A stretch of 64,000 nucleotides of DNA from Gemmatimonadales bacterium. Its GTDB lineage: Bacteria; Gemmatimonadota; Gemmatimonadetes; Gemmatimonadales; GWC2-71-9. Below are positions 48,103 to 63,926 of this stretch, one piece after another. Position 1 is the first letter of the stretch. Every line of letters starts with the position of its first letter. A model generated the notes under the pieces. That model ran no database searches and was not told the origin of the DNA. It saw nothing but the letters and a program-made list of their open reading frames with translations. The translations under genes were made by a program, and so were the position numbers. The DNA lies in the NCBI GenBank assembly GCA_033764615.1, contig JANRIU010000061.1:31090-95089 (forward strand), given 5' to 3'.

Positions 48103-48150
48103 ATGCTGGCGTGCGCCAGGAAAGCGCTCCAGGACGGGCAGGGGTCGCCG

Positions 48151-48179: not shown

Positions 48180-48206
48180 GTGATTACCCTAGGACAGGAG
48201 CGGCAC

Positions 48207-48446
48207 GTGAGGACCCGCCTCATCCGCATTGGCAATTCGAGAGGCGTCCGGCTCCCGAAGCCGGTACTCCAGCAGGCGGGGCTCGTGGACGAGGTCGAGA
48301 TCCGCGTCGAGCCTGGTGCCATTACCATCGCCGCCGTGGGGTCGCCGCGTGCCGGCTGGGCGGCTGCGGCAGCGGGCGTCGAGCCCGCCGGCCTGCTCGA
48401 TGCGGCGACCGCCACGACGTTCGACGAGCGCGACTGGACGTGGTAG
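48207..48446 (+). CDS. mazE: AbrB/MazE/SpoVT-family antitoxin
   Basis: VRTRLIRIGNSRGVRLPKPVLQQAGLVDEVEIRVEPGAITI is a swapped-hairpin motif. It overlaps the toxin gene start. Confidence 0.75.
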   Translation: MRTRLIRIGNSRGVRLPKPVLQQAGLVDEVEIRVEPGAITIAAVGSPRAGWAAAAAGVEPAGLLDAATATTFDERDWTW

Positions 48447-48772
48447 GCGCAGCGGTCCGGCGGGGCGACGTGTGGCTGGTCGAGCTCAACCCGACCCGCG
48501 GCCGCGAGATCCGCAAGACGCGGCCCTGCGTGGTGGTGTCACCTGATGAGCTCAACGCGCACATGGGCACCTTCATCGTCGCCCCGCTGACGACGGGCAG
48601 CCATCGTTATCCGTTCCGCGTGCCTGTCCGCTTCCGCGGCAAGGACGGCCACGTCGTGCTCGACCAGCTGCGCACCGTGGACCGGGAGCGGCTGCTGGAG
48701 CGGCTGGGCTCGCTGACTGCCACGACGCTTGGCAAGGTCCTGGCGGTACTGGGAGAGATGTTCGCGCCGTGA
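48440..48772 (+). CDS. mazF: MazF/PemK-family endoribonuclease toxin
   Basis: RRGDVWLVELNPTRGREIRKTRPCVVVSPDELN...FIVAPLTT...VVLDQLRTVDRERL. Confidence 0.85.
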   Translation: MVGAAVRRGDVWLVELNPTRGREIRKTRPCVVVSPDELNAHMGTFIVAPLTTGSHRYPFRVPVRFRGKDGHVVLDQLRTVDRERLLERLGSLTATTLGKVLAVLGEMFAP

Positions 48773-49161
48773 GGGGGGCGGGCCTCGTCAAGTGGCCCGC
48801 TCGCCGCATAACACGGTCAGGTTGACGCGGGTGAGCTGTCGTTCGCGCGGCGGTGGTTCTGCCCCGCCCCCCGGCCAGCTGCGTCGATGTCGACGCGGAA
48901 ACCCGAAGATGGTGGTAGCGGCCAGCGCCGCCAGAGCTTCAATGGAGCCGGGTGTCAACGCCGGTCGATGTTGCCCACTTTCGCCGGTTGATCTTGCACA
49001 CTCGGCGGGCGGCCAGCCCGGGCGTCAGGTGCCGGGCGCGGGCCTGCGATTGCTGTAACGTCACCGTCGGCCGCCGCAGCGCGCGTCCTGCCTGCGGCAT
49101 CGGCAGTTCGGCGCTGGGCCGGTGACGCTGTGCCGATACCCTTGTTCGTGGAGGAATCCGC

Positions 49162-49896
49162 GTGACCTCGCGCCTCGCCCCTGCCAGTGCCTACAAGGCC
49201 GCCTTCGCCGCCCTCGCCGAGCGCGGCCTCGCCGAGAGCTGCCGTACGATGCTCGCGGCGCACTACGCCATGTCAGGGCATGTGGCGACGATGCGGTATC
49301 TGTGTGCGGCCATCGGGCGGCCCGCCGAGTATCGGGCGGGGAACCTCATCTACGGTGGACTGGCGAAGCGCGTGCGGCTGGAGCTCGGCCTGCCGTTCCT
49401 CGGCCTCGAGCTCGGTACCTTGGCGACCTACCCTGAGGACCCGATCGACGCGCTCGGTGAGTTCTCGTTCCGGATGCGTCCCGAGGTCTGCAGGGCGCTC
49501 GAGTCGCTTGGCTGGGTGCGCAGCGGCGCCCGGACCCCGCGGCCCCGGCGCGACCTGCCCCGTACGGCGGTCGAAGGCGCACGGCGGGAGCAGCTCGTGG
49601 CGCATCGCCGCCGCGAGCGCGGGCTTCGCGAGGCCAAGATCGCGGAGGCGTTGACGCGATCGCGCGATGGCCGCCTGCGCTGCGAAGTGCCAGGCTGCGG
49701 CTTCGACTTCGAGAGGACTTACGGCGCGGCCAGGCGCGGATACATCCAGATCCATCACATGAAGCCGCTGGGCGACTGGGCGAAGGGGGAGCGGCCCCGC
49801 CTGGAGGAGCTCGCGCTGGTGTGCGCGAACTGCCATGCGATGATCCACGCGGGGGGAAGGTCGCGCAGGTTGGAGACGCTCATTGTGCGGTGGTAG
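49162..49896 (+). CDS. HNH endonuclease with uncharacterised N-terminal domain (McrA/COG3183-like)
   Basis: GTG start with GGAGGA upstream. The C-terminus CEVPGCGFDF...IQIHHMKPL...LALVCANCHAMIH is a CxxC...HH...N...CxxC H (HNH) motif. Confidence 0.8.
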   Translation: MTSRLAPASAYKAAFAALAERGLAESCRTMLAAHYAMSGHVATMRYLCAAIGRPAEYRAGNLIYGGLAKRVRLELGLPFLGLELGTLATYPEDPIDALGEFSFRMRPEVCRALESLGWVRSGARTPRPRRDLPRTAVEGARREQLVAHRRRERGLREAKIAEALTRSRDGRLRCEVPGCGFDFERTYGAARRGYIQIHHMKPLGDWAKGERPRLEELALVCANCHAMIHAGGRSRRLETLIVRW

Positions 49897-50064
49897 ACGG
49901 GGCGTGAGGAAAAGGCTGCGCCTGCGAAGGTCTGCTGCAGCGGACTCGTCGCAGGCCTTTGCCGCGATCCCCTCGATATCTGCCAGATTCGAGCTGCATG
50001 AAGAATGAGGCTCGCACATGGACTGCCACAGAGGCACCAGCACCACGGCGCGTCAGAAGGAAGC

Positions 50065-53000
50065 TCAGACGACTTCAGATTGCTGACGCAGCTCCTCGAT
50101 GCGACGGACGAGCCGCTCCATCTGCCCGTCAGGGTCCTTGAACCAGTCGGTCGACCAGATCCGGTGCAGCGTCCAGCCGAGTGACTCGAGCTGCCGCTGC
50201 CGCAGCCGGTCGCGGTCCCGGGCGCTCTTCGCACTGTGGTATGTCGCGCCATCGCACTCGATGCCCAGCAGGAAGTCTCCGGGCTTGGAGGGATCCACTA
50301 CTGCGAGGTCGATGAAGTAGCCAGCCACGCCCACTTGCGCGCGCGCCTCGTAGCCCCGAGCCTGCAGCGCCATCGCCACCGCGATCTCGAAGTCAGAGTC
50401 CGGCGCGCGACCAGTCTCGGTGCCCCGGGCCCACCAGAGCTCGCCGCTCGCGTACCGCAGGTAGTCGCGCAGAACGCGTAGACCCCTCGGACTGGACTCG
50501 CTCACACGAAGGTTGTTCGGGTCGAACGAGTGGAAGACGTCGAGGCGATGCTTGGCGCGGGTGAAGAGCACGTTCAGGCGGCGCTCGCCGCCGGCCTGGT
50601 TGATGGGGCCGAAGTTCTGGCGCAGCTGCCCTGCCTCGTTGGGTCCGAACGTGACAGAGACCATGATCCGGTCTCGCTCGTCTCCCTGTACATTCTCAAG
50701 GTTCTTGACAGTGAACGGCTCCTGCGTGCCCGCGTGGTGGGCGCAGAAGTCCTTGAAGGCAGGGTCGTTCTTCTCTAGGATCTGCGCCAGCCCGTCGATC
50801 AGATCTGCCTGCTCGGCGTTCAGCGTCGCTACGAGCAGCGATTGCTCAGGGCACTCGCGCACATGACGGCGAACCTCGGCGATCACCCCTTCTGCTTCGC
50901 GCATGTTGCGTCGCCCCACGTAGACTGCGTCATCGAAGAGGTGTCGCACCACTCCAGCGCTCGCTCTCCCATTGGTCGGCGTCGGGAAGATGATCAGTCG
51001 ATCATGGTAGAACTCGCGATTGGAGAACGCGATGAGGCGTGGATGGCGGGAGCGGTAATGCCAGCGGAGCATGCGGACCGGGAAGCACGCAGCTGCCGCC
51101 AGCAGGATGCTCTCGGACCGCTCCAGCACCGTGACGCCGCTGGCGACCGGCGTCGGGCCCTGCTCGCAAACGGGCTGAGCATCGCTGTCCTCGGGCCCGT
51201 CCGGGCTGTCCTCCGGGATCTCATTCTCGTCGCCGGCATCCAGCCGGTCGAAGAACCGGGTCGGGCCGAGCTGCATGGGGTCCCCGACGATGAGAATCTG
51301 CTGGCCGCGCGCGATGGCACCCAGCGCATCCTCCGGGCGCATCTGTGAAGCCTCGTCCATCACGACGAGATCGAAATCGAACTGACCGACCGGCAGGTAC
51401 TGTGCGACAGCCTGGGGCCCCATGAGAAAGCACGGCTTCAGCGACTGAATCGCGCGCCCCGCGCGAACGAACAGCTCCCGGATGGCGAGATGGCGCTTCT
51501 GCAGCCCTGCCTGGTGGAGGATGAGCGGCTCGTTGGTCATGTCCCTCACGAGCGGACCCTTGCAGCCCGGGACCGCCGGCGTGCGGGCGAGCTCTGCCGC
51601 GATGGCGGCACGGGTGAGGATCTCACGATCGGCGTCAAGGCGGGCGAAGCGGCGACGTACCTCGGCGTGGGTGCCGCTGTCGAACGCGTCCAGGACCCGG
51701 ATCTCCCGCAGGGCAGCCGAGGAAAGATTGCGGAAGAAGGCTGCCTCGTAAGCATCGCCGGCACGATCTCGTGCGAGGCGCTCTGATTCGACGAGCGCGA
51801 CGATTTCACCAAGTCCCTCGGCCACGGCTTCGGCACGGGAGCGGCGGTAGATTGCCCACGGATAGAGCGCACTCTCCCGACTCAGCGCCAAGTCGAGTCG
51901 ACGCTTCAGCAGGTGGACAGGTACCTCGTGCAGCGGGTCATCTGCTTCCCGCCAGGCAGCAGCCTCGGCGCCAAGCGCGCCGATCCACGCTGCGTCGTCG
52001 AGCATGCCACGGGTCCGCAGCGGCGCGGCACTCTCCTGGCACCGTGCTAGGGCCGAGGCCAGCCGAGTCGTGCGCTCCCGCATGGCGTGGAGGCGATCTG
52101 GAGCCTCCGGACCGAGGAGCCATGCCTCGATTGCAGGCGGAAGGTCTGCCGCCTCCACCCGGGTGATGTACAGCAGCGCGTCCTCGAGCGCGTCGATCTC
52201 GGTGCTGGCACCCGCGACGCCCACGTCGAGCATCTGGAGGACCGAGGCACTCGCGACAACCCGGTCTTCAGCATCCCACGCTGCCTGCACTCGGGCGAAG
52301 CGCTCACTGATCGCTTGAAGGGTGGCCTCATGTCCGAGTCCGGTCGAGTCCGCCACGGCGAGGAACGCTTGGCAGCGATTCAGGAGGGCCTCCAGCTGCT
52401 CGGCGATCTCCGCAAGCGACTGCGCTGCCAGAGTCGACAACGGCTGCCGCAGCGCGACGGCACACCGGTCGAATAGAGACGGCAGCGCAATCGCTGCCTC
52501 CCAGCGCGCCCCCGCGCCCTTCGCGCGCTCCACCGCACCTTGCCACTGCACCGGAGAGGCAGCCGAAAGGAAGGACGTCAGATCGCGCCCGGCGCTGCCA
52601 AGCGGCTGACATGCCCGACGGACGGCAGCGTGCCAGTCCGCTGCGGCGAGCGCCGCATCGAATGGGGAGTCCACGCCAGAGGCCTGAGCACCGAACATGT
52701 CCGTGAGCAGCGGGTCGGTCCCAAACTCCCGTGTGGCATCATGGTTCACGACGAGCGCCCGCACGTCGCGCAGCATCGTTTCGCGATCCTCGCGGAGCCC
52801 CCCGCTCATGTCGCGGTAAAGCTTCACCGCGCTTCTGTAGCTGCCGGAGAGAAGCCACGAGAGAAGGCGCGGCGCGGTCGCAAGCACCGTCGCCGTGAGC
52901 CGAAGCTGTTCCATTGGGGGGCGGAAGCTCGGCTGAAAGCGGGCTCGCAGGGCGTCGCGGGTTTCGCGCAGTGCCGCTGCGCGCGCGCCCAGGACCTCGA

Positions 53001-55362
53001 GGCGGGCACGGGCCTGAACATCGGCGGTCTGGGTTTGGAGGAGGGCAAGTGCTCGCGGATCCAGCTCCATGCCCTCCCGGACGCTGGCAGCCAACGCCGC
53101 AGCGAGGGCTGCGCCCAAAGGGGCGCTGCCGTCGCCAACGGCAGCAGAACGACTCGCTCCGACACCGCCGAGTGCTTCGACAAGGTCGCGGACGACGGAA
53201 TCGGCATGCGTCACGAGCGCGTACAGCTGCGGCAACTCTGATGCGACCTCCCGGACCGTACGGATGAGGTCCGTAGCACCAAAGCGGTCCTCGATCGCCG
53301 ATAGTGCGGCCTGCACCTTGCCCGCCTCGTGGCGTGCCACCGCTCCGGGCACTCCCCACGGACCATCAATGGCGAGCCAGCGCTCACGTGCGGTTCGCAC
53401 CGCATCGATCGCGGCACGTACGTTGGGCACTTCAGTCGAGGAGAGTATCCGGTGGGGCAGATTGCCGGGCACGTGACTTGGCAGCTGGACGAGCTGCTGC
53501 ACCCCCTCCGCGATGCACCGCAAATCAGCGACCGGCGGAGCCGTCGCCTGCCCCAGCATCGTGTTCAGCGCGAAGACCTCGGCCTCGAGCTCCCGCAGCG
53601 CCGTGCGCCACGAATGAGCCGCCTCGAGCAGGTCGTCGACCTCGGCGTGGGGAATGTCCTCGTTCGTGATGCCAGCCCACGGGTGCTGGTCCAGAGTCGG
53701 CCCCTCCGAACGCACATTCTCGAAGGCACCCGCGAAGTTGTCCACGAGGTCACGGCGCGCAGCGACCGTCTGCTGTGAGGCCTGCGTCACCCTCTGGATC
53801 CGCAGTTCCTGAACTTCGCTCAGCACGTCAGGCGGGATGGCCGAAGCGAGTCGACGGGCTCGCCAAAAGATGTCGTACGGGGTCATCTTGACCGCGCCAA
53901 ACGGCTCGTGCAGCGCCTTGAGTGGCCGGGCAAGCTCGCTTCGCGCCGCCAGGAGGCGCTCTGTGAGAATCTCAAGGTCCTTGGGGCGGCTCGGGGGCTC
54001 GTCGCGCAAGGCGAGCCGGCGCCCGAGGGCCGCGACGAACTCGCGCTTCGCCGACGAGTGGCTGTGCAGAGGCAGGCAGAACTCCGCGAGGCCGGCTGCC
54101 TCGAGGCGGGTGAAGACCACGTCGAGCGCGGCCTTCTTTTCGGCGACGAAGAGCACCTTGCGGCCCTGCTTGATGGCGGCAGCAATGAGATTCGTGATCG
54201 TCTGAGACTTCCCGGTGCCCGGCGGTCCCTGGAGCACCAGATTAAGGCCGCGCTCGACGTCAACCAGCGCGCTGTGCTGCGAGCTGTCCGCCTCGATGAC
54301 GGTCGGTGGAAGGCTCCCGGGGCTCTCGTCGAGCTGGTCGAGCGGATACTCCTCTCCCGTCGCCTTCGCCGCCGCGCCTTCGTGGTCGACTTCGCGGCTC
54401 GCCCCAAGCAGTTCTCGGAGCGGAGTGCTGCTGAAGATGGGGCGTGCGGCGGGCCACTTGGCGGGATCGAGGTCCCGCCACATGAGGACCTTGCCGAACG
54501 AGACGAGTCCTAACGTGAGATACCGGCGCAGGCGCCAGGACGGCTGCGCGCGCTTGAGCAGGCTCTCGACCCGGCCGAAGTAGTGCTCGAGTGACTTGTC
54601 CTCATCAACCATGTCGGGAAGCTGGAAGCCGAAGTCGACACGGCACTTCTCCTGGAGGGTGACGTTCGCGCTCCAGTCCTCCCCGGTACGCTCGAGCGTA
54701 TAGCGGTAGGTGTTCGTATCGCGGTCCAGATCCCGGCGCTGCAGGGCGACGGGCACGAGTACCAAGGGGGCGAGGCGGACGATACGCTCCGAGTCACAAT
54801 AGCCCGCTTCCGACCATTCGATGAAGCCACAGAGCAAGTGCAGGCGATTGGCGCCCGTCTCCTCGAGTGACGTGGTCGCGGTCCGATGAATCTTGCGGAG
54901 CTGCTCCTCCAGTTCGTCTGGGAAGAACAGTGTCTGCAGTTTCCTGTCTTGATGCTTGGTGTGCGAGCTGGTCACCACCTTCGGAAGCTCGAAGTCGACT
55001 GAGACGCCCATTTCGGCGGCGCTCGCCGTGCGGCGAGCGTCGCGCCGGGCCTGGCTTGCGCGACGCTCTTCGCGCGCGCGCATCCGAGGGTCGACGTTGG
55101 ACTCGAGGGCGAGCTGCGCCGCATCGCGCTGGTCCGCTGTACGAACGCGGGGGCCCCCGGAGGGCTCGTCCAGCGATGCGAAGGAGAGCTTGTCGTTCTC
55201 CAGCAGGCGCTCGAATACCTGAGCAGGTACCTCATCCACGATCCGAAGAGAGGTCGCCTTGGGGTGCCGGTAGTTGAGCAGGGCGTTGTTGCCGGTGAGG
55301 TCCAGCAGGCGCCGCCGCAGTCTCTCCAGCAAAGGAGAAAGCTGGGCTGCGTCGTCGTTCAT
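50065..55362 (-). CDS. Giant DUF4011-like / UPF1-like SF1 helicase with C-terminal Vsr/DUF559-like endonuclease domain
   Basis: The N-terminus from ATG 55362 is MNDDAAQLSPLLERLRRRLLDLTGNNALLNYRHPKATSLRIVDE. Motif I LQGPPGTGKSQT (about 54.20-54.23 kb). Motif II VVMDEASQ (51343-51366). LNVLFTRAKHRL. Nuclease region GYFIDLAV..LGIECDGATYH (about 50.24-50.32 kb). Alternative starts are at 55389 and 55491. Confidence 0.85.
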   Translation of the reverse strand: MNDDAAQLSPLLERLRRRLLDLTGNNALLNYRHPKATSLRIVDEVPAQVFERLLENDKLSFASLDEPSGGPRVRTADQRDAAQLALESNVDPRMRAREERRASQARRDARRTASAAEMGVSVDFELPKVVTSSHTKHQDRKLQTLFFPDELEEQLRKIHRTATTSLEETGANRLHLLCGFIEWSEAGYCDSERIVRLAPLVLVPVALQRRDLDRDTNTYRYTLERTGEDWSANVTLQEKCRVDFGFQLPDMVDEDKSLEHYFGRVESLLKRAQPSWRLRRYLTLGLVSFGKVLMWRDLDPAKWPAARPIFSSTPLRELLGASREVDHEGAAAKATGEEYPLDQLDESPGSLPPTVIEADSSQHSALVDVERGLNLVLQGPPGTGKSQTITNLIAAAIKQGRKVLFVAEKKAALDVVFTRLEAAGLAEFCLPLHSHSSAKREFVAALGRRLALRDEPPSRPKDLEILTERLLAARSELARPLKALHEPFGAVKMTPYDIFWRARRLASAIPPDVLSEVQELRIQRVTQASQQTVAARRDLVDNFAGAFENVRSEGPTLDQHPWAGITNEDIPHAEVDDLLEAAHSWRTALRELEAEVFALNTMLGQATAPPVADLRCIAEGVQQLVQLPSHVPGNLPHRILSSTEVPNVRAAIDAVRTARERWLAIDGPWGVPGAVARHEAGKVQAALSAIEDRFGATDLIRTVREVASELPQLYALVTHADSVVRDLVEALGGVGASRSAAVGDGSAPLGAALAAALAASVREGMELDPRALALLQTQTADVQARARLEVLGARAAALRETRDALRARFQPSFRPPMEQLRLTATVLATAPRLLSWLLSGSYRSAVKLYRDMSGGLREDRETMLRDVRALVVNHDATREFGTDPLLTDMFGAQASGVDSPFDAALAAADWHAAVRRACQPLGSAGRDLTSFLSAASPVQWQGAVERAKGAGARWEAAIALPSLFDRCAVALRQPLSTLAAQSLAEIAEQLEALLNRCQAFLAVADSTGLGHEATLQAISERFARVQAAWDAEDRVVASASVLQMLDVGVAGASTEIDALEDALLYITRVEAADLPPAIEAWLLGPEAPDRLHAMRERTTRLASALARCQESAAPLRTRGMLDDAAWIGALGAEAAAWREADDPLHEVPVHLLKRRLDLALSRESALYPWAIYRRSRAEAVAEGLGEIVALVESERLARDRAGDAYEAAFFRNLSSAALREIRVLDAFDSGTHAEVRRRFARLDADREILTRAAIAAELARTPAVPGCKGPLVRDMTNEPLILHQAGLQKRHLAIRELFVRAGRAIQSLKPCFLMGPQAVAQYLPVGQFDFDLVVMDEASQMRPEDALGAIARGQQILIVGDPMQLGPTRFFDRLDAGDENEIPEDSPDGPEDSDAQPVCEQGPTPVASGVTVLERSESILLAAAACFPVRMLRWHYRSRHPRLIAFSNREFYHDRLIIFPTPTNGRASAGVVRHLFDDAVYVGRRNMREAEGVIAEVRRHVRECPEQSLLVATLNAEQADLIDGLAQILEKNDPAFKDFCAHHAGTQEPFTVKNLENVQGDERDRIMVSVTFGPNEAGQLRQNFGPINQAGGERRLNVLFTRAKHRLDVFHSFDPNNLRVSESSPRGLRVLRDYLRYASGELWWARGTETGRAPDSDFEIAVAMALQARGYEARAQVGVAGYFIDLAVVDPSKPGDFLLGIECDGATYHSAKSARDRDRLRQRQLESLGWTLHRIWSTDWFKDPDGQMERLVRRIEELRQQSEVV

Positions 55363-55782
55363 GCCGCTGGGGCTCGAGGCAGGTCGCATCGGCTGAGTAG
55401 CGAGAGGAAACGGCGGCGCGACTGAACGCTGGCGTGCTGCAAGAGCGCCGCACCGTCGAGGTGAACACGCCACGGGGGTCCACCAAGCCACTGACCCGTC
55501 AGCGATCCTCCGCCACAGGGCAGATGCGGCCGGTCACGCACATCGGTGGCAATCTAGCAAGCCGTGCGTCAACGAGGGTGGCCCTCGGGCGAAGTCGTCA
55601 GCGAGTCGGTAGCATGCCGAGCCAAGAGCGCCTTCGTAGGCGACAGCGAACGGGTGCAGCCAGCCGCCTCTGTCGAGCCGATTGACCCTGCCGCTGGTTG
55701 GCCAACGCCCAAGACCAGCTCTCGAGATGCATAGTCCCCTCCCAATCCCCAGGCCGGTTCAACACCAAGGCCCGTTGTTCCC

Positions 55783-58413
55783 TCATTGGCCGGCGGGCTC
55801 CCGCACCCACCCCAACGTCGTGTAAGCGAAGCGGCTCCGGCCGATCCGGATCGTGTAGGGACCTTCTTCCTGCACGATCGTCGCCTGGGGCGGTGCGTCG
55901 GAGGCCTTCTGGAGCCGCAGCTTGCGCCACTCGATCGCCAGCTCCTTCGCGGGCGGGGCATCGCTGAAGTGATGCCTCACGGGGATCGGCAGCGGAATCA
56001 CCACCCGATCGTCCCCGAGGCGCGTCCGCACCTTGAGCTCCTCGTCCGCCGCCATCCGGAATGCCTCGCACATCTCGCGACTTCCGTAGCGGTGCCGTGT
56101 GAGCGGAAGGCGCAGCCTGGCAGCCAATGAACGCTCTCCGCTCTCCTTTCCGTCCTGCTGTAGGAGGTAGCGCTCCCACCGTGGATCGGAGGCGGCAAGC
56201 GCCTCGCGTGCCTCGTGGTGATACACCCGCTCGATGAGCCGGCGGCTGGCCTCGGGTATGTCGAACTCGGGATCGCGATCGAGAAGGCTGAGCGTCAGCT
56301 CGAGCGTGACCAGGTCTTCGTACACGGATCCCAAACCTGCCGCTGCCAGCGAAGCAACTCGCCCCTGAGCGGCTTCCAGCAGCGGCACTTCGGGCGCGAT
56401 GACGATGGCGGCAGGCTCGGTACTGCAACCCGGCCGCTGGCGGGCATGCCGATGGACTCGGCCCAGCCGCTGCACCAGCACGTCGATGGGGCAGAGGTCC
56501 GTCATGAGCACGTCGAAGTCAACGTCGAGGCTCTGCTCGACGACCTGCGTGGCCACGAGGATGCCCGCGCCCGCTGTGCCGCCCAGGCCGAAGCCTGCCC
56601 TCACTGCCTCGTCCATGGCGACGCGGTCAGCGTCCGTGTACCGGGCATGGTATGGTGCCGGTGGACGCCTGGGCACGCCGAACAGCGCGGTTCCGCCACG
56701 CGCTGCAAGGTGGGCAAAGGTATCCGTGGCCTTCTGGACGGTGTTCCTCAGCACGAGGACGCGAGCGCCCTCCGCAGCAAGCTGGGCAGCTCGGTCGAGC
56801 GCGGCAGCCTCACCCATGCGTTCGGTTCGATAGTGCCGACAGCGTGACGGGCTGGACGACAAGGCCACGCGCCGACGGGCATCATTCCGCGCCACGACGG
56901 TCACGCTGGGAAACGGCTCAGTACTGGCTTCCATGAGGGATCGCCGCGAGTCGAGGCGAGCGATGCGTCCCAGCGCTCCATCGGACAGGGTCGCGGACAT
57001 CGTGATCACGATGCCGCCGGCTTGGCGAATGAATGCGACAAGCTCCTGGAGGATGAAGAGCATGTAGGTGTCGAACGAGTGTAGCTCGTCAACCACAACG
57101 AGAAGTCGTCCGAGCGAGGCAAGCCTCAGGTGGGCATGGCGGACGGGGAGTGCCGCCAGCAGCGCCTGATCGATGGTCCCGACCACCAGCTCCCCTGCGA
57201 GCGCCCGCGTAAGTGACTCTGAGGCCCATCGCGTGAGGGACTCGCCCTGCTGTGCATCAGCGTCAGTGGGAATCTCGGATAGGCCCGGCAGCCTCGAGGG
57301 AATGCCGCCTGCCGCGAGGACGACGCTTGCCGCTGCCTCGGGGCTGACGTGGCGGGCGAACGCCTCGATCCTGTCGCGCATCGCGGAGGCTGTGGCACGA
57401 GTGGGAAGCGCAAAGAAGACGCCATCCACGACGCCAGCGTCCCGGAGCCGGGCGTACAGGGCGAGCGCAGCCTCCGTCTTGCCGCTCCCTGTGTCCGACT
57501 CGATGACCCAGAGCTCTCCCGGCAGGGGGAGCGGTCCTTCGGTCACGTGGTGCTGCAAGGCCGTCGGTCTCATGGCAAGTCTCGGGAACAGCGAGCGCCA
57601 ACGGCAGTCGATCCGTCTCGGCAGGGGGCGTCGTGTTCCGGTCGTGGCCAGGCCCCATGCGGCTCGTCGCTGTGCCTCTGCCCAGTATGCGTCGGGGTCG
57701 TCGACGGTCCGACAAAGCGGGGGGAAGATCTCGGCCGTGGAGCCGAGCCAGTCCGCGAGCGATCGGACACCAGCGAGGAGCTGGGTGAGCGGCCCCGATG
57801 GCGTAGGAGTGGCATCCTCGATCTGCGATAATCTGAGGGCCTGGGTGACGAGCCGAAGCGCTTCGGCGCGCGGGTCTCGTCCACCCGAGGGGAGCCAGTC
57901 GGTCCTCCATGCCTCGGGGGGCATCACGGTGCCAGGCGCGAATGGTCGTCCGTGATGCGCGATGACCTCGTAGATCCACTGCTCGGGAGTCGGCGCCTCT
58001 GGCTCTCCCGGCGCAAGAGGGCTGACCAGGGCGCTGCGCAACTCCTGCAGGGCGATCCGCGCTTGACCAAGATCGCGGGCCAAGTGAAGTTCGACGATGA
58101 GACGTTGCACGTGGCTCGTGCGCGGAAAGTTGCGGAATCCGTCGCGCTGCTCTTGGAAGCCGGCGTGCACCTTGCCGACGTCGTGTACGAGGGCGGCATA
58201 CACTGCCAGGCGCCTGACCGCTTCCGCACGAGCCGGATGGCCGGTCAGCGAGTCCAGCCGATGACCGAGTGCGGTACCAGGCGCCAGAAGAACGCGGGTC
58301 ACCGCAGCGACATCCATAAGGTGAGCGTCGAGCGGATGCCAGCCGCCACCTCGCGCCTTCGCCCAGAAGGCGCCGTGCGGGATGTTCGAGACGGGAGGCG
58401 CGATGGGTGTCAT
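55783..58413 (-). CDS. cas3: CRISPR-associated helicase/nuclease Cas3 (type I)
   Basis: ATG 58413. HD domain HLMDVAAV...LVHDVGKVHAGFQ. DEAD-box helicase motifs DTGSGKTEAAL and VVVDELHSFD. It is divergent from the cse1 operon. Confidence 0.9.
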   Translation of the reverse strand: MTPIAPPVSNIPHGAFWAKARGGGWHPLDAHLMDVAAVTRVLLAPGTALGHRLDSLTGHPARAEAVRRLAVYAALVHDVGKVHAGFQEQRDGFRNFPRTSHVQRLIVELHLARDLGQARIALQELRSALVSPLAPGEPEAPTPEQWIYEVIAHHGRPFAPGTVMPPEAWRTDWLPSGGRDPRAEALRLVTQALRLSQIEDATPTPSGPLTQLLAGVRSLADWLGSTAEIFPPLCRTVDDPDAYWAEAQRRAAWGLATTGTRRPLPRRIDCRWRSLFPRLAMRPTALQHHVTEGPLPLPGELWVIESDTGSGKTEAALALYARLRDAGVVDGVFFALPTRATASAMRDRIEAFARHVSPEAAASVVLAAGGIPSRLPGLSEIPTDADAQQGESLTRWASESLTRALAGELVVGTIDQALLAALPVRHAHLRLASLGRLLVVVDELHSFDTYMLFILQELVAFIRQAGGIVITMSATLSDGALGRIARLDSRRSLMEASTEPFPSVTVVARNDARRRVALSSSPSRCRHYRTERMGEAAALDRAAQLAAEGARVLVLRNTVQKATDTFAHLAARGGTALFGVPRRPPAPYHARYTDADRVAMDEAVRAGFGLGGTAGAGILVATQVVEQSLDVDFDVLMTDLCPIDVLVQRLGRVHRHARQRPGCSTEPAAIVIAPEVPLLEAAQGRVASLAAAGLGSVYEDLVTLELTLSLLDRDPEFDIPEASRRLIERVYHHEAREALAASDPRWERYLLQQDGKESGERSLAARLRLPLTRHRYGSREMCEAFRMAADEELKVRTRLGDDRVVIPLPIPVRHHFSDAPPAKELAIEWRKLRLQKASDAPPQATIVQEEGPYTIRIGRSRFAYTTLGWVREPAGQ

Positions 58414-58450: not shown

Positions 58451-58497
58451 TCTTGGTGGTCGCGGGGCAGTCTCTTGCCTGCAAACTTGGGGGTGAC

Positions 58498-60051
58498 ATG
58501 AATCTGCTCACAGATGCCCTCTTCCCCGTTCAGCGAGGAGAGGGGGAAGCGCACCTTCCCCTGCCCGAGCTGCTCGTGGCCCTCTGGCGAGGCGATCTGC
58601 AGGCGCTGCTCGGTGTCTCGTCGATCCAGCGGCAGTACCTCTGGCGCTTTCTCGTGCGCGTCGCCGCGCACGCTTCGGAAGCCGAGCGAGGGTGCTTGGA
58701 GCACGCAGACCGGCTGCGCGAGATTCTGGTCGAGGCGGCGGGGGCGCCGGGTGCATGGGACCTTTACCGTCCCGACGGCGGCGCGGCTTTTCTCCAGCCT
58801 CCGGCTCAGATGGAGGAAGGGGCCCCCGTGGACTTCAAGCCCGAGGCAACATCCCGCTTGACCGTGGTGCCCGGGGACAAGAACCATGAGTTCAAGCGAG
58901 GCGCCCTTGTGAGCCTCTCGGCGACGGATGTGTTGCTATCGCTGCTCGAGTACCAGTTTGGCTCCGTGTATACCAAGATGAACTACGCATCGCAGATCAT
59001 GGGTTCGAGCAGTGGGAAGGGCAGTGGTTCACCATTCATGGCACCGTGGTGGCCTGATCTGGGCCGTACGTTCCGCGCTCATCTTGCCGCGTCGCTTGCG
59101 AGGGCCGATTACACCAGGGACGTCCTCGGGCTGACTGGCTCGGTGTGGGCGCTCTGGACGCTGCCGTGGGACTCGGGCGATCCCCCACTGCCCGCAGAGT
59201 TACTGTCACCACATTTCGTGCCCTTGGCACGCAAGGTTCGCCTCGCTTCACCGGATGCCTCTGGTGCGTTCTCGCGCATCTGGTTCAAACCGACGACCGC
59301 CGCCCGGGTGGCGGATCACACCGAAGGCTCCGGCCTCGGCGATCCGTTCACGCCCTTCGTTGCGGATGGGACCAGGCAGAAGGTGCGAGGGGTGATGAGC
59401 AATGGCTTCGACTACCGTGAGGTCGCGCGCCTGCTGCTACGAGTCCAAGTTACAGGGCGGGCCGGTGCGCCTTCATTCGCCGTCGAGCATGCGGCGCAGT
59501 CGTCGTACGAGCCGACCGTGCCGGTTCTCCTCGAGGGCATGGCGTTCGATCAGGGAAAGACCCTCGGTTTCCATCGGCGCGTCGTTCAGCTCCCCTCCGA
59601 GGTCGCCGCCGACCCCGCGCCAATCGCGGTCTTCGTGGCGAGTCTGCTCGATGCGGCGAAGGAAGCGGAGAGTGCACTCGAGGCCGCGATACGCACCTGG
59701 CTATCTGGTACGCCCAAGCCCCGCAGCGGAGATCTGGCGCGCATCCAGCGACTGCGCGGTGATCTCACGTCGCGCGTGGATCGCGCCTTCATCGAGTTGC
59801 TCCCCCGCATGCATGGTCGTCAGGGCGATGAGTGGATTGAGCGTATGCTCGAGGATTGGCGCCGGCGCCTCGTGAAGGAGTGTCGAGGGGCATTGGAGCG
59901 GGTGATGCGCGCGACGCCAACCCGAGTCTCAATAAGCCATGAGCGGCGCGTGGGTGCAAACTCAGTGCTTTCCGCACGACTTCGACGCGCCGGTCTGCTG
60001 GGTGATCAGCCCGAGGTGGTGCCAGTGTTCGAGGAGATTGCGCATGTCTGA
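58498..60051 (+). CDS. cas8e: Cascade large subunit Cse1/Cas8e (CasA)
   Basis: The N-terminus MNLLTDALFPV resembles the E. coli CasA start (MNLLIDNWIPV, from memory). 517 aa, and the first gene of a I-E-ordered operon. Confidence 0.8.
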   Translation: MNLLTDALFPVQRGEGEAHLPLPELLVALWRGDLQALLGVSSIQRQYLWRFLVRVAAHASEAERGCLEHADRLREILVEAAGAPGAWDLYRPDGGAAFLQPPAQMEEGAPVDFKPEATSRLTVVPGDKNHEFKRGALVSLSATDVLLSLLEYQFGSVYTKMNYASQIMGSSSGKGSGSPFMAPWWPDLGRTFRAHLAASLARADYTRDVLGLTGSVWALWTLPWDSGDPPLPAELLSPHFVPLARKVRLASPDASGAFSRIWFKPTTAARVADHTEGSGLGDPFTPFVADGTRQKVRGVMSNGFDYREVARLLLRVQVTGRAGAPSFAVEHAAQSSYEPTVPVLLEGMAFDQGKTLGFHRRVVQLPSEVAADPAPIAVFVASLLDAAKEAESALEAAIRTWLSGTPKPRSGDLARIQRLRGDLTSRVDRAFIELLPRMHGRQGDEWIERMLEDWRRRLVKECRGALERVMRATPTRVSISHERRVGANSVLSARLRRAGLLGDQPEVVPVFEEIAHV

Positions 60052-60547
60052 CAAGGGTGTCGTCGCGGTCGGCGTGCTTCCGGCGCTTGAGCGCGCCGTG
60101 CGACTCGTGGAGCGCTGGCGCGCGAACGCGGATCGAGGGCGGCTTGCGGAACTGCGCCGGCTTGGCAAGGGGGTCATGCCCGGCGAATCCTTCTTCGTCA
60201 TCGCCGACGCCATGCAGGCAACGCGGCATGAGGAGGAGTTCCTGCTGAGGTTCCTTCCGCTCGCGGCCATGGCGAGACATCGTCCCGGACTGAGGCCCGG
60301 CGTCGCCTTCAAGGCGGCGGAGATCTCGTCGACACGCTTCGAGCGCTGGCTCCGCTCCCCCGCACATGTAGCCGTTGAGCAGTCGCGCGCCCTGATTCGT
60401 CGCTGCGAGGCGCTCGATGTGGTCCGACTCGGGCGGCTGCTGTATCGCTGGAGTGATTCGGACCGACTCACGCTCGCACGAGAGTTCTATCGTCAGGCGC
60501 CGACGAAGACGGGGGCGCCTGTTCCCACCATCATGACGTCGGAGTGA
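60044..60547 (+). CDS. cse2: Cascade small subunit Cse2/Cas11 (CasB)
   Basis: 167 aa, helical, Arg-rich. The call rests on its position between cse1 and cas7e, with an ATG..TGA overlap with cse1. Confidence 0.7.
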   Translation: MSDKGVVAVGVLPALERAVRLVERWRANADRGRLAELRRLGKGVMPGESFFVIADAMQATRHEEEFLLRFLPLAAMARHRPGLRPGVAFKAAEISSTRFERWLRSPAHVAVEQSRALIRRCEALDVVRLGRLLYRWSDSDRLTLAREFYRQAPTKTGAPVPTIMTSE

Positions 60548-61740
60548 CCATGGGTGACTTTCTGCAGATCCACAGTCTCGTTTCCTACCCCGGCGTCCTC
60601 TTGAATCGTGACGACGTCGGGCTGGCCAAGCGGCTGCCATTCGGTGATGCCGTACGTATCCGTGTGTCGTCCCAGTGCCTGAAGAAGCACTGGCGTGAGG
60701 CCGTGGCGGCGCGTCATCCCGAGCTGCCGGCTGCGGTCCGCAGCCGCGAAATCCTCACGAGGGAGATACGGGACTGGCTGGAGCAGCAGGAAGGCGTCTC
60801 GCCCGCGGCAGCCGATAGCGCGGTGCGGCGGCTCGCTGATGTCGTCCTGAAGTCGAAGGAGAAGCAGGAGGACAAGCCGGCCGCGGATGATGAGGGTCAG
60901 GACGGCGATGGCGAGGCCGCCGACGAGCTGAAGACGGGGCAGGTCATCGTGCTCAGCCGCGCCGAGATCGATCGCCTGCGGACTGTGGCGCTCCGGCTTG
61001 CGAAGTCCGAAGGGTCGGGCGAGGAGCGCCCGGACGCGCCGAAGAAGGCCAAGGGTGCCAAGGGCAAGGCAAAGACGGGTGCCGAAGTCCTGAGCAAAGA
61101 GGATCAGGAAGAACTCCGATCCATCGGCGGCTCCTTCGACATGGCACTGTTCGGGCGCTTCGTCACCAGCGAGCTCCTCGCCCGGGTGGACGCGGCTGCC
61201 AGCGTTGCTCACGCCTTCACGGTGCACGGCGAGCAGGCGGAGACCGACTACTTCACCGCGGTGGACATGCTCGATGCCAGAGGCGCGGCGATGGTGGGCG
61301 ATGCCGAGCTGACGTCCGGTGTCTTCTACGTCTACGTCGTCATCGACCTCGACCAGTTGCGCGACAACCTTCCCGGGCGGCAGGAACTGGCGGAGCCGCT
61401 GGCGGCGTGGCTGGTCGAGGCCATCGCGACGGTCAGCCCGGGCGCCAAGAGGGGCTCCACCGCTCCGTACGCCTGGTCCGAGTTCGTCCTGCTCGAGCGG
61501 GGCTCTGCCCAGCCTCGGACTTTGGCGAACGCCTTTCGGAGCGCGCTCCCCCTCAACTCGGGCCAGGATGTGCTTGCGGATGCGGTGCAGGCATTGCTAG
61601 GGGAGCGGAAGCGCCTCGAGGCGATGTACGGAGAGCTGGTGTCGAGCGAGCGCGTGGTCGTCGCATCGACCCACCCGGCGAGCGAAGAGCTGCCCCGCCA
61701 GCCGCTGCACGCGGCGATCAAGGCCGTGCTTGCCGTATGA
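60544..61740 (+). CDS. cas7: Cascade backbone subunit Cas7e (CasC/Cse4)
   Basis: FLQIHSLVSYPGVLLNRDDVGLAKRLPFGDAVRIRVSSQCLKKHWR matches the E. coli CasC pattern FINIHVL...LNRDD...RVRISSQSLKR. The start is GTG 60544 (GTGA overlap) or ATG 60550. Confidence 0.9.
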   Translation: MTMGDFLQIHSLVSYPGVLLNRDDVGLAKRLPFGDAVRIRVSSQCLKKHWREAVAARHPELPAAVRSREILTREIRDWLEQQEGVSPAAADSAVRRLADVVLKSKEKQEDKPAADDEGQDGDGEAADELKTGQVIVLSRAEIDRLRTVALRLAKSEGSGEERPDAPKKAKGAKGKAKTGAEVLSKEDQEELRSIGGSFDMALFGRFVTSELLARVDAAASVAHAFTVHGEQAETDYFTAVDMLDARGAAMVGDAELTSGVFYVYVVIDLDQLRDNLPGRQELAEPLAAWLVEAIATVSPGAKRGSTAPYAWSEFVLLERGSAQPRTLANAFRSALPLNSGQDVLADAVQALLGERKRLEAMYGELVSSERVVVASTHPASEELPRQPLHAAIKAVLAV

Positions 61741-62423
61741 GCGAAGCCGCATTCCTGCTGCTCCACCTCGACGGCCCCATGCTGGGCTGGGGCGGGACCG
61801 CTCGCGACGGGCGCCGGCCTTCCGCCGAGGTGCCGGGCGTCTCGGCGATCACCGGCCTTCTGGCCAACGCAGTGGGTTGGCGCTACGAAGATGCCGAGCG
61901 GACGGAGGCCCTCAAGCGCTCGCTACGGCTCGCGTGCTGTCGCCTCGAGCTGCCGGGAGCTGAGCTGTTCGACGATTACCAGACCGCACGGTTGCGCATC
62001 ACCGACCGGGGCTGGACGAGGCGTGGCTCCGAAGGCCGCACCGGGGATAACTCGGACGGCACCACCATTCTCCGCAAGCAGTATCGCGCAAATGTGAGCT
62101 GCCGTGCGGCTGTTGGACTGCGCGCCAACGCACCGGTAACGGTGCAAGAACTCGAGGATGCCCTACGCAGGCCTGCGCGGACGCTGTTTCTCGGACGCCG
62201 TTCCTGCCTTCCGAGCATGCCGATCCTCGGTGCGCGAGTGTCGGCGGTCTCGGCCTACGTTGCCCTGCGGGCGTGGGTCGCGGACGCGATCGCGATCTGG
62301 CACAACGACGGCGAGCAGGGCGATGTCGTCGAGACTGACGATCGGGATTTCCGAACGGATCGTTGGGCGGCGGGAAGTCGAGCCTGGCGTTTGGTGCTTG
62401 GCGGAGGTGGCTCGCGTGAATGA
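61737..62423 (+). CDS. cas5: Cas5e (CasD)
   Basis: LLLHLDGPMLGWGG matches the CasD pattern L.GPMQ.WG. ATGA overlap with cas7. Confidence 0.85.
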   Translation: MSEAAFLLLHLDGPMLGWGGTARDGRRPSAEVPGVSAITGLLANAVGWRYEDAERTEALKRSLRLACCRLELPGAELFDDYQTARLRITDRGWTRRGSEGRTGDNSDGTTILRKQYRANVSCRAAVGLRANAPVTVQELEDALRRPARTLFLGRRSCLPSMPILGARVSAVSAYVALRAWVADAIAIWHNDGEQGDVVETDDRDFRTDRWAAGSRAWRLVLGGGGSRE

Positions 62424-63090
62424 TGCGCTGCTTTCCCGGGTGCGCGTTCAGGTTCCGTCGAGGCCCGGTGAACGCACCTCTGCGGAGTACCTCCGCCATC
62501 AGGCCGTCGCTTCCCTGTTCCTCGGTCAGGATGAGGCGCGGCCGCTCTATCGGGTATTGGAGGAGAGCGGGGGCGCATCGACCCTTCTCGTCCTGAGTTC
62601 GGTGCCCCCACGGCGGACGTCGGAGATCGCGCCGGGGCGTTGGGTTGGTGAAGTTGTGACGAAGCGGTTCGCGCCACCGCTCAAGCCCGGACAAGGCGTG
62701 GACTTCGATCTGGTCGTGAACGCTGCCTCGGTGGTGACGGACGGGGCAGGCCGCAAGCGACGCGTGGACGTATGGGACGTCGTCTTCGCGAGCAAGGATC
62801 ACGAGGACGTCGATCGGGCAGACGTGTACGCTGCTTGGCTGTCGCGCCAGCTCAATGGCGCGGCGGAGCTGGTGTCGGGGCAGGTGGCCGAGCGCGGCTT
62901 GATGCGCGTGCGCCGGCCGGGTCGGGAGGCGCCGATGGTTTTCGTCCGGACCCGCATCATCGGCGCCCTGACAGTCAGGCAGCCAGCAGAGCTTACCGCG
63001 TTGCTTGTGCGGGGCATCGGGCGAGCACGGGCATTCGGCTGCGGGCTCATGTGCCTGCTGCCGGCGGGGCGTCTTCATCGCAGACCGTGA
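62416..63090 (+). CDS. cas6e: Cas6e (CasE) crRNA endoribonuclease
   Basis: EYLRHQAVASLF matches the E. coli pattern LYQLHQGLWHLF with the catalytic His. The C-terminal GIGRARAFGCGLMCLLP matches GIGPAKSMGCGLLSL. GTG 62416 or GTG 62407. Confidence 0.85.
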   Translation: MNDALLSRVRVQVPSRPGERTSAEYLRHQAVASLFLGQDEARPLYRVLEESGGASTLLVLSSVPPRRTSEIAPGRWVGEVVTKRFAPPLKPGQGVDFDLVVNAASVVTDGAGRKRRVDVWDVVFASKDHEDVDRADVYAAWLSRQLNGAAELVSGQVAERGLMRVRRPGREAPMVFVRTRIIGALTVRQPAELTALLVRGIGRARAFGCGLMCLLPAGRLHRRP

Positions 63091-63926
63091 TGCTGCAGGT
63101 CCGGCATCGGCTCTCGTTCTTCTACGTCGAGCGCGGTACCCTCGCCGTCATCGACGCATGTCTCGTGCTCGCCGACGGCGTCAACGGCGCACGCTTCGAA
63201 GTGCCTGCGCGCGCGACCACCGTGATCATGATCGGCCCGGGAACCTCGGTAACGACCGAGGCGGTCCGTCTCGCGGCGGCGTACGGGGTTCAGCTCATCT
63301 GGACGGGAGAGCACGGAGTCCGCTGCTACTCGGCGGGGCGAGCGTGGACCGAGCTGTCCCGCTGGCTTGAGCGGCAGGTGACACTCTGGAGCGACCCTGT
63401 CTCGCGCCTCGGCGTCGCTCGCAAGATGTTCGGGATGCGGTTCCACGACTCCGTGGAGCGCCGTTCGCTGGAACAACTCCGCGGGATCGAGGGCGCGCGT
63501 GTGCGGGAGTTCTACAAGCAGGCCGCCACTGCCTTCGGCATTCGGTGGACCGGGCGGAGGTATCCTGGTGGCGGCCCGTCCAGCGACTTTGACGCGCCCA
63601 ATCGCGCGCTCAATGTCGCGAACACCTGCCTCTACGGCATTGCCGAGGTGGCCGTTCAGGCCCTGGGCGCCAGTCCGGGACTCGGCTTCATCCACTCGGG
63701 GAGCGCCGTAGCCTTCGTGCTCGATGTGGCTGACCTCTACAAGACCGAACTCGCGATTCCAGCGTGCTTCGGCCTGGTCTCCCGCAAGGCGCCGGATGGA
63801 GAGCCCTGGGCCACTCTCGAGAGCGATGTACGGCGCCTGATGCGGGACGAGTTCCGCGAGGGCAAGCTCGTGGAGCGCATCGTCGCTGACGTGGAGAAGC
63901 TTCTGGATGCTGGTGATAGTGGTTGA
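63090..63926 (+). CDS. cas1: Cas1 integrase (I-E type)
   Basis: MLQVRHRLSFFYVERGTL..., GIEGARVREFY, GLGFIHSGSAVAFVLDVADLYK (metal-binding His/Asp region). Confidence 0.9.
   Translation: MLQVRHRLSFFYVERGTLAVIDACLVLADGVNGARFEVPARATTVIMIGPGTSVTTEAVRLAAAYGVQLIWTGEHGVRCYSAGRAWTELSRWLERQVTLWSDPVSRLGVARKMFGMRFHDSVERRSLEQLRGIEGARVREFYKQAATAFGIRWTGRRYPGGGPSSDFDAPNRALNVANTCLYGIAEVAVQALGASPGLGFIHSGSAVAFVLDVADLYKTELAIPACFGLVSRKAPDGEPWATLESDVRRLMRDEFREGKLVERIVADVEKLLDAGDSG

Follow-up and report, generated by a model that had tools for sequence, protein, structure and literature searches.

Gene content of the locus

The window, which is the whole stretch of 64,000 nucleotides that was analysed, contains on its reverse strand a gene (50065..55362, (-); 1765 amino acids plus the stop codon) to which we refer as the Hhe-like gene. 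The surrounding open reading frame (50065..55491, (-)) comprises 1808 amino acids when counted from the first GTG and is the largest of the window, as stated in a previous sequence-only reading of this DNA. The second-largest frame (1209 amino acids) is probably spurious because it fails the GC3 filter. Two start codon options lie upstream of the ATG at 55362, namely an ATG at 55389 and the GTG at 55491. The ATG at 55362 is likely to be the start codon; it is used by both the NCBI protein (1765 amino acids) and an independent Logan assembly, which gives the same gene call. The ATG at 55389, from which a protein of 1774 amino acids would be synthesised, also fits the N-termini of the relatives. 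The GC3 pattern of the gene is coding-like, with values of 0.73/0.49/0.79 at the codon positions 1/2/3. The encoded protein is identical to an NCBI entry from a Gemmatimonadales MAG, which has been annotated as 'DUF4011 domain-containing protein'.

The Hhe-like gene is flanked on one side by mazE (48207-48446, (+)), mazF (48440-48772, (+)) and a gene encoding an HNH endonuclease (49162-49896, (+)), the latter being convergent with the Hhe-like gene; none of the three has a PADLOC match. On the other side, the 876-amino-acid Cas3 protein of a type I-E system is encoded (55783..58413, (-)), which carries the Pfam domains Cas3_HD, DEAD and Cas3-like_C_2 and matches the PADLOC model Cas3e with E = 2e-151. 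The cse1-cse2-cas7e-cas5-cas6e-cas1 genes (58453..63926, (+)) are divergent from cas3, and cas2 crosses the end of the window. The neighbours MazE, MazF, HNH, Cas3e, Cse1, Cse2, Cas7e, Cas5, Cas6e and Cas1 are thus confirmed. At about 48 kb and beyond, the GC content of the window drops from 0.72-0.78 to 0.66-0.70, and a separate assembly of 16.2 kb covers exactly the region from MazE to Cas2. The Hhe-like gene is therefore located in an acquired low-GC block that consists of defence and toxin-antitoxin genes only (MazEF, HNH, type I-E CRISPR-Cas). The initial description as a defence-type helicase-nuclease fusion is supported.

Domain organisation and predicted structure

All domains that had been read from the letters, i.e. 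DUF4011, AAA_11, AAA_12, MTES_1575 and DUF559, were matched by Pfam. The N-terminal DUF4011 region (54646..55311, (-); residues 18-239) matches PF13195 with E = 3.4e-33 over the profile positions 1-157 of 158. In the AlphaFold model of this region (pLDDT 84.7, pTM 0.70), the alpha/beta core reaches approximately residue 300, and a Foldseek search of the PDB returned no analogue (TM-scores <= 0.1). An alignment of 41 family members was used to define invariant residues; it includes the window protein, and all invariant residues, among them those of the helicase motifs and of the nuclease core, are therefore present in the window protein by construction. In the DUF4011 region, Q143, E168, G170, N172, W183, P199, P204 and N233 are invariant.

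The DUF4011 region is followed by an SF1 helicase, of which motif I or Walker A, LQGPPGTGKSQT (54199..54234, (-); residues 377-388), lies in an AAA_11 match of Pfam covering the residues 360-421. The residues G379, P380, P381, G382, K385, S386, Q387 and T388 of motif I are invariant in the 41 family members, as are D1336, E1337, A1338, S1339 and Q1340 of motif II or Walker B, VVMDEASQ (51343..51366, (-); residues 1333-1340). Motif III, VGDPMQLGPT, comprises the residues 1359-1368 downstream of motif II. About 950 residues separate motif I (G379-T388) from motif II (D1336-Q1340), which is close to the roughly 940 codons estimated before. The RecA2 domain (AAA_12; 50536..51084, (-); residues 1427-1609; Pfam E = 5.5e-10) also contains invariant columns of the family alignment and carries the motifs WHYRS (1434-1438), motif V VQGDERD (1558-1564) and motif VI RRLNV..R (1594-1602).

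The long distance between the motifs I and II is due to an all-alpha insert of about 850 amino acids (51493..54045, (-); residues ~440-1290), which is situated within RecA1 between the motifs Ia and II. The AlphaFold model of the insert is wholly helical (pLDDT 91.3) and found no match in the PDB (Foldseek TM-scores <= 0.1). An exhaustive search yielded 89 matches, of which the full-length ones are all located at the equivalent position in proteins of ~1650-1880 amino acids. The possibility that the insert also occurs in other architectures was discarded, as the exhaustive search found it in the Hhe-like family only. Judged by these comparisons, the insert is family-specific, and the few conserved columns in the family alignment indicate that it evolves fast. 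The shorter matches to the insert look like fragments.

Upf1-like helicases bear accessory insertions between the motifs Ia and II, and the insert of the window protein lies in the same region. The window protein has the AAA_11/AAA_12 core in common with the Upf1-like SF1B helicases (Upf1, IGHMBP2, Sen1), whereas the latter lack DUF4011 and a nuclease, and its insert is about 850 amino acids long. When solved structures were searched by sequence, Upf1/IGHMBP2 were the sole PDB matches, extending over ~60-95 residues around motif I (best E = 3e-6).

The C-terminus is formed by a Vsr-like/MTES_1575 nuclease of the PD-(D/E)xK type (50098..50391, (-); residues 1658-1755), which matches PF18741 with E = 2e-38 and also DUF559 (Pfam E = 4e-5). 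The nuclease is hence Vsr/MTES_1575-like and not a PLD enzyme, as had been proposed. Its conserved core consists of the invariant residues D1685, E1702, D1704, Y1708, H1709, R1715 and D1718. Moreover, E1702 is part of a GIECDG motif that aligns with the Klebsiella Hhe protein, and it probably corresponds to E1731 of the E. coli Hhe protein.

Relationship to Hhe and other defence systems

Hhe is a single-gene system (Gao et al. 2020). The PADLOC model of Hhe matches the window protein with E = 6.7e-253 over the residues 130-1760, and the top NCBIfam match is 'DUF4011 domain-containing anti-phage protein Hhe' (Hhe_antiphage, NF042953) with 1329 bits, which is below the equivalog cut-off of 2000 bits. 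The controls, i.e. the Klebsiella Hhe protein (2735 bits) and a homologue from Pseudomonas duriflava (2212 bits), exceed the cut-off, whereas the other relatives from Gemmatimonadota and Myxococcota reach 1291-1441 bits and remain below it. Because its score lies under and those of the Klebsiella and P. duriflava homologues lie above the cut-off, the window protein is placed by sequence in a Gemmatimonadota/Myxococcota sister clade of Hhe, and it qualifies as a family-level homologue rather than as an 'equivalog' in the sense of NCBI.

The order of DUF4011, motif I, long helical insert, motifs II-VI and Vsr-like MTES_1575 nuclease is the same as in Hhe (NF042953, PADLOC PDLC02194), e.g. in WP_031944115 from the Klebsiella plasmid pKp848CTX, which has been named Hhe by PGAP and is of similar size (1911 versus 1765 amino acids). 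A BLASTP comparison of the two proteins revealed collinearity over the residues 12-68, 130-926 (31% identity) and 1235-1759 (46% identity) of the window protein. The insert, which aligns across the family, is thus collinear with that of Klebsiella Hhe as far as residue 926. However, the identity in the aligned blocks is only 31-46%, the residues ~926-1235 of the window protein were not aligned by BLASTP, and the window protein stems from a high-GC Gemmatimonadales host. Both Hhe and the gene in the window are stand-alone genes of a kind that resides on mobile elements and within defence islands. The homologue search returned over 6000 proteins; of those listed, nearly all are 1700-1900 amino acids long and contain an identical set of Pfam domains.

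The view that the architecture does not belong to a named and tested system has to be given up, as it is that of Hhe, which has been tested. The supposedly uncharacterised giant helicase-nuclease is a recognisable defence gene of the Hhe family and thus of an already named kind. Profile searches essentially assign it to a named system, although the score is below the NCBI equivalog cut-off. Apart from this sub-threshold score, nothing further speaks for a decayed or inactive remnant, i.e. a pseudo-enzyme lacking a present function. The probability of this explanation is almost negligible: the frame of 5.3 kb is unbroken and has a coding GC3 pattern, the invariant catalytic residues are all kept and the predicted domains fold at high confidence.

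Other models and systems were compared as well. The PADLOC candidate PDC-S37, which also models a large helicase-nuclease of related type, strongly matches the window protein (1179 bits). However, it is uninformative as a true family because it scores true Hhe equally well (1267 bits; Pseudomonas Hhe 1312 bits), the true-Hhe matches being located mainly in the C-terminal half. With true Hhe also scoring ~1200-1300 bits, PDC-S37 fails to define the clade of the window protein. The NCBIfam model 'anti-phage protein ProA' (NF058533) describes a related large helicase-nuclease and likewise gives a strong match, but it was rejected since the window protein scores 1042 bits against a cut-off of 1500 bits and matches the profile positions 355-1711 of 1903, leaving the first ~355 positions unmatched. 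Literature searches returned no papers on PDC-S37 or ProA. The type II Mokosh protein MkoC, MkoA, Nhi and Hachiman HamAB, which are listed in the literature as helicase families of their own, are likewise phage defence systems in which a nuclease effector is paired with a helicase of SF1 or SF2. However, the Mokosh, Nhi and Hachiman systems contain neither DUF4011 nor a giant insert, and their similarity to the window protein is confined to the helicase core; the models of MkoA and MkoC match the RecA-like core with E = 3e-26 and 7e-16, respectively. Moreover, the effector nuclease is a PLD enzyme in Mokosh and the separate subunit HamA in Hachiman, whereas it belongs to MTES_1575 in the window protein. 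Membership in type II Mokosh or Nhi was dismissed on these grounds.

Relation to cas3 and genomic contexts of the homologues

The Hhe-like gene lies downstream of cas3 on the same strand. The stop codon of cas3 is located at 55783, and the gap to the ATG (55363..55782, (-)) measures 420 nt, in agreement with the earlier value. Simple scans of the gap detected neither a terminator-like nor a sigma-70-like consensus site, which is weak evidence in a non-model phylum with a GC content of 70%, and the RNA fold of the gap is not more stable than that of shuffled sequences (z = +2.0). Together with the GC content of the Hhe-like gene, which resembles that of the cas genes, this arrangement would suit a Cas3 accessory that is co-transcribed with cas3 and aids type I-E interference, e.g. 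in DNA processing after nicking by Cas3. The same strand, the spacing of 420 nt and the lack of a recognisable terminator are also the basis for considering a lineage-specific capture into the cas3 transcription unit. In this case, the gene product would act with type I-E interference, e.g. as an additional helicase-nuclease for which Cas3-mediated degradation gives the licence or which backs up this degradation, and the locus would represent two immune systems that have become coupled in this lineage.

The genomic contexts of the homologues do not support cooperation with Cas3 interference, which the sequence-only reading had considered. In 86 homologue loci (~1.5 Mb, flanks of up to 10 kb per side), tblastn and phmmer identified no relatives of Cas3, Cse1, Cse2, Cas7, Cas6e or Cas1, and a scan for repeat arrays found no CRISPR array; homologues beside cas3 were accordingly seen in 0 of the 86 loci. 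Cas families are also absent from the 25 commonest PADLOC families listed in the neighbour census. Furthermore, the relatives with 49-67% identity have wholly different neighbours, and one gene suffices for Hhe activity in E. coli (bioRxiv 10.1101/2024.10.10.617714; bioRxiv 10.1101/2022.06.16.496414). We consider the lineage-specific capture very unlikely and the role as a Cas3 accessory exceedingly so. The adjacency to cas3 is ordinary clustering in a defence island; cas3 is a neighbour and lies outside the Hhe-like module, and no feature of the window protein demands Cas3 or another partner. When the 811 proteins encoded in the flanks of 84 loci were clustered all against all, no family was present in more than four loci, and the Hhe-like protein should therefore act without a conserved partner gene. 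This also applies to mazE, mazF and the HNH gene, none of which is conserved beside the homologues; MazF and HNH gave one weak match each, in one locus.

The closest relatives adjoin other defence genes. A relative with 67% identity is located next to GajA (E = 1.6e-122) and GajB of Gabija, one with 66% identity next to an Avs1b-like NTPase of 2184 amino acids, and one with 49% identity abuts full-length DruE3 of Druantia III (1932 bits) and a type III methyltransferase. Another relative adjoins an IS481-type transposase. In the wider family the census is mixed, comprising cupredoxins (7 of 135), RNase II, RecG and ABC-F genes as well as scattered defence matches. Homologues are present on 501 plasmid records. 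A phage collection yielded only three weak matches, so that phages are not typical carriers of the gene.

As an alternative, the protein could be a housekeeping helicase-nuclease for genome maintenance, i.e. repair or recombination, which some lineages inherit vertically and whose presence in the island of the window would be incidental. Vsr-type nucleases are classically repair enzymes, which counts in favour of this explanation, as do the homologues from Longimicrobium and Gemmatimonadaceae with conserved non-defence neighbours (cupredoxins, RNase II). Moreover, every P. aeruginosa isolate possesses a large DUF4011 gene, which flanks the defence hotspot cDHS1 as a core gene and is not part of the variable cargo (PMC10250203). 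However, synteny is kept only within genus-level groups, the closest relatives adjoin the defence and transposase genes mentioned above, homologues are found on plasmids and the gene in the window belongs to a low-GC acquired block. Phage protection by E. coli Hhe also depends on the nuclease glutamate (bioRxiv 10.1101/2022.06.16.496414). A housekeeping function is thus unlikely. In our opinion, the gene is probably a divergent Hhe member that encodes a stand-alone, single-polypeptide anti-phage helicase-nuclease and that is cargo of an acquired defence island of lower GC content.

Possible mechanism and significance

The E. coli Hhe protein is active against the phages lambda, T3, T7 and PhiV-1, and the E1731A exchange of the nuclease glutamate abolishes defence (bioRxiv 10.1101/2022.06.16.496414). 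Protection has been shown for E. coli Hhe only, and phage defence by the window protein would follow from its homology to Hhe. Triggers and counter-defence genes of Hhe have also been reported (bioRxiv 10.1101/2024.10.10.617714; bioRxiv 10.1101/2024.04.14.589459). Co-expression of E. coli Hhe with a trigger is toxic, and many T7 class II genes score as potential triggers.

Literature and PDB searches returned no published mechanism or structure of Hhe, and we therefore infer the individual steps. The SF1 Upf1-like ATPase core, whose motifs I-VI are intact, may load on nucleic acid and translocate along it. DUF4011 and the helical insert could either restrain the enzyme or serve as a sensor. 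Because many T7 class II genes score as potential triggers, the enzyme might be switched on by activities or intermediates of phage DNA metabolism and not by one particular phage protein. Finally, the Vsr-like nuclease would cut DNA and thereby stop phage replication, possibly at the cost of the cell; this step builds on the requirement of the nuclease glutamate and on the toxicity of trigger co-expression in the case of E. coli Hhe.

The Gemmatimonadota/Myxococcota clade falls below the annotation cut-offs, and NCBI assigns only the label 'DUF4011 domain-containing protein'. As a consequence, censuses of defence systems underestimate the number of Hhe-like genes in soil phyla. With DUF4011 and the insert, the Hhe family contains two confidently folding regions lacking a PDB analogue; the rapidly evolving insert suggests itself as a candidate sensor.

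Family assignment

Three independent libraries place the 1765-aa protein encoded beside cas3 in one named family, Hhe. PADLOC matched its residues 130-1760 to Hhe (E = 6.7e-253), the best match in NCBIfam was NF042953, "DUF4011 domain-containing anti-phage protein Hhe", and a tblastn search against plasmids yielded 501 matching records, with Klebsiella plasmids carrying the PGAP gene name hhe on top. The Klebsiella Hhe reference (WP_031944115, 1911 aa) is encoded on pKp848CTX, where hhe adjoins two DUF262 genes, a type I restriction subunit and an IS66 element. A BLASTP comparison revealed that the window protein is collinear with this reference over residues 12-68, 130-926 (31% identity) and 1235-1759 (46% identity). 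The NCBI equivalog cut-off for NF042953 is 2000 bits, which is passed by the Klebsiella Hhe (2735 bits) and the P. duriflava homologue (2212 bits). With 1329 bits, the window protein is no NCBI equivalog, and its relatives from Gemmatimonadota, Anaeromyxobacter and Corallococcus (1291-1441 bits) are also below the cut-off. In a neighbour-joining tree, the window protein falls within a clade dominated by Gemmatimonadota and Myxococcota, which is separate from, yet continuous with, the Klebsiella/Pseudomonas clade. Judged by these sequence comparisons, it is a divergent member of the Hhe family. The sequence-only reading had stated that no named, tested system has this architecture. This was wrong because Hhe has been tested in published work, and the profile searches essentially lead to a characterised, named system, at a score below the equivalog cut-off.

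The top-scoring PADLOC candidate for the window protein was PDC-S37 (1179 bits). It was rejected as the model defining the clade because true Hhe scores equally well (1267-1312 bits); relatives outside the Hhe clade reach 1179-1260 bits. The related NCBIfam model ProA (NF058533; 1903 positions) was also rejected, as the score is below its cut-off and about 355 N-terminal profile positions have no match; a literature search found no publication on ProA. Among these DUF4011 helicase-nucleases, the limits between families are blurred across current annotation resources.

Hhe is reportedly among the single-gene systems in the 2020 work of Gao et al. It contains a Vsr endonuclease domain and acts against lambda, T3, T7 and PhiV-1; T4 is not restricted, and the E1731A exchange abolishes the activity (bioRxiv 10.1101/2022.06.16.496414). 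Moreover, the PhageMaP preprint describes that Bas63 g40 is toxic in hhe cells only, that seven class II genes of T7 with roles in DNA metabolism act as potential triggers and that several genes serve counter-defence (10.1101/2024.10.10.617714). According to its authors, activation follows the action of the triggers and not the trigger proteins themselves (10.1101/2024.10.10.617714). A third preprint assigns anti-hhe activity to ORF65 of PhiDruSM1. Our literature search found no mechanistic or structural paper on Hhe.

Domain architecture and working model

Each of the domains previously read by eye in the Hhe-like protein was confirmed by Pfam, namely DUF4011 (residues 18-239, E = 3.4e-33), AAA_11 around motif I, AAA_12 (residues 1427-1609) and the MTES_1575 nuclease (residues 1658-1755, E = 2e-38), with a weak match to DUF559. 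An alignment of 41 full-length relatives, including Klebsiella Hhe and Pseudomonas homologues, uncovered invariant residues in motif I (GPPGxGKSQT), motif II (DEASQ), motif III (VGD..QL.P), RecA2 (WHYRS), motif V (VQGDERD) and motif VI (RRLNV..R). In window numbering, D1685, E1702, D1704, Y1708, H1709, R1715 and D1718 are invariant in the nuclease core, and Q143, E168, G170, N172, W183, P199, P204 and N233 in DUF4011. Since these columns are invariant across the alignment, the window protein has every one of them, and by its residues it looks like an intact enzyme.

The insert that separates motif Ia from motif II (residues ~440-1290) is predicted to be an all-alpha multi-domain array (pLDDT 91.3). 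Foldseek gave no meaningful PDB analogue of the insert (TM-scores <= 0.1), the only matches being to long-helix proteins of a generic kind, among them MukB, JetC and dynein. An exhaustive phmmer search with residues 566-1235 against 1.84 billion representatives returned only 89 matches, of which the full-length ones all lie at the equivalent position in proteins of ~1650-1880 aa, and the shorter ones resemble fragments of such proteins. Because the matches are confined to these proteins and few columns of the insert are conserved in the 41-sequence alignment, the insert is family-specific and fast-evolving, as would be expected of a surface used for sensing or regulation. The DUF4011 region is predicted to form an alpha/beta domain (pLDDT 84.7, pTM 0.70), for which Foldseek found no PDB analogue. 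The sole sequence relatives of the window protein in the PDB are the Upf1/IGHMBP2 cores, and this likeness is restricted to the surroundings of motif I. In a working model, the protein would have SF1B-type translocase activity, as its family suggests, and the Vsr-like nuclease would be the effector, by analogy to E. coli Hhe, for which this has been shown. DUF4011 and the insert may control activation upon phage DNA-metabolism intermediates, a role to which the PhageMaP trigger pattern points.

Genomic context

As previously claimed, the longest ORF in the window is 50065..55491 (-), encoding 1808 aa from the first GTG; its codon-position GC (0.73/0.49/0.79) is a coding signature at about 70% genome GC. 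The gene most likely starts with the ATG at 55362 (1765 aa), which is used by the identical NCBI protein P0001 and by an independent Logan assembly; an ATG at 55389 is also compatible with the N-termini of the relatives. Annotation bore out the neighbours as well: the + strand carries MazE, MazF and an HNH gene, the last of which converges on the Hhe-like gene, Cas3e is upstream on the - strand, and cse1-cse2-cas7-cas5-cas6e-cas1-(cas2) diverge from cas3. The HNH gene (49162-49896, +) codes for 244 aa with a C-terminal HNH motif and an N-terminal region of ~170 aa; it has no PADLOC match and is not conserved beside Hhe-like homologues.

The cas3 stop codon at 55783 leaves a 420-nt gap to the Hhe-like start on the same strand. 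Neither a consensus terminator nor a promoter was found in this gap and its RNA structure is not unusual; read-through from cas3 into the Hhe-like gene is possible. A Cas3-accessory role, the alternative in the sequence-only reading, was evaluated with 80 genome and 5 metagenome loci of homologues (~1.5 Mb, <=10 kb flank on each side), to which the window's own region, as assembled independently, was added later. Searches of the homologue loci with the window Cas3, Cse1, Cse2, Cas7, Cas6e and Cas1 by tblastn, and of 811 flanking proteins with the window Cas proteins by phmmer, gave no match, and CRISPR-like arrays were detected in 0/86 loci. A tie to cas3 and a Cas3-accessory role are therefore not supported across these loci, and the adjacency is best read as defence-island clustering. 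A lineage-specific functional coupling with cas3 is considered highly improbable. Clustering of the 811 flanking proteins showed that every neighbour family is common to <=4 loci; thus, there is no conserved partner, which is as expected for a single-gene system.

Among the closest relatives, P0002 (67% identity to the window protein) neighbours GajA (E = 1.6e-122) and GajB, P0004 (66%) an Avs1b-like NTPase of 2184 aa, the homologue at locus L001 (66%) an IS481-type transposase, and P0008 (52%) a ThyA / aGPT-Pplase3 / M78-peptidase region. In a Gemmatimonadetes MAG (L002:3708-23148; 49%), full-length DruE3 (Druantia III, 1932 bits) abuts the homologue, whose start is the exact end of DruE3. 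On the far side of the homologue come genes for a UvrD-like helicase, a type III methyltransferase (925 aa) and a ResIII protein (1021 aa). This downstream trio is also present beside the homologue in two Sphingorhabdus-type genomes (L060 and L063), and the set may be a co-transferred multi-system cassette.

The defence-type reading of the gene is supported. A neighbour census of the wider family (±2 genes, 135 proteins, 45 loci) contained scattered defence-type matches (PD-Lambda-1, GajB, a DRT-type RT-helicase, MADS components and kinases). The census is mixed, with cupredoxins (7/135), RNase II, RecG and ABC-F as housekeeping neighbours, and a large DUF4011 gene at the border of hotspot cDHS1 belongs to the core genes of P. 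aeruginosa (PMC10250203). Both observations speak for a genome-maintenance role in some lineages, which we consider unlikely.

From ~48 kb on (~48000-64000), the GC content drops from 0.72-0.78 to 0.66-0.70, and a 16.2-kb metagenome contig from an independent assembly (L087) extends exactly from MazE to Cas2. Thus, the MazEF-HNH-Hhe-like-CRISPR-Cas I-E block behaves as a single unit, which suggests one acquired island. Its left edge showed neither a tRNA nor an integrase, and no CRISPR array was found inside the 64-kb window.

Repeats elsewhere in the window

Arrays of the octamer GGGCGGAC, followed after a gap of ~10-115 nt by arrays of the reverse complement GTCCGCCC, are spread over the high-GC part of the window (5689-5777, 25289-25446, 34984-35162, 38989-39154, 40764-40866, 42714-42895 and others). 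By their sequence, they could form long hairpins, and they resemble repeat elements of the REP or terminator type. Moreover, there are two tandem repeats, at 36906-37149 (44 nt x 5.5 copies, 97% identity) and at 44483-44963 (166 nt x 2.9, 93%), the units of which both start with CTGTCATTGC; the latter repeat is located ~3 kb ahead of the low-GC island.
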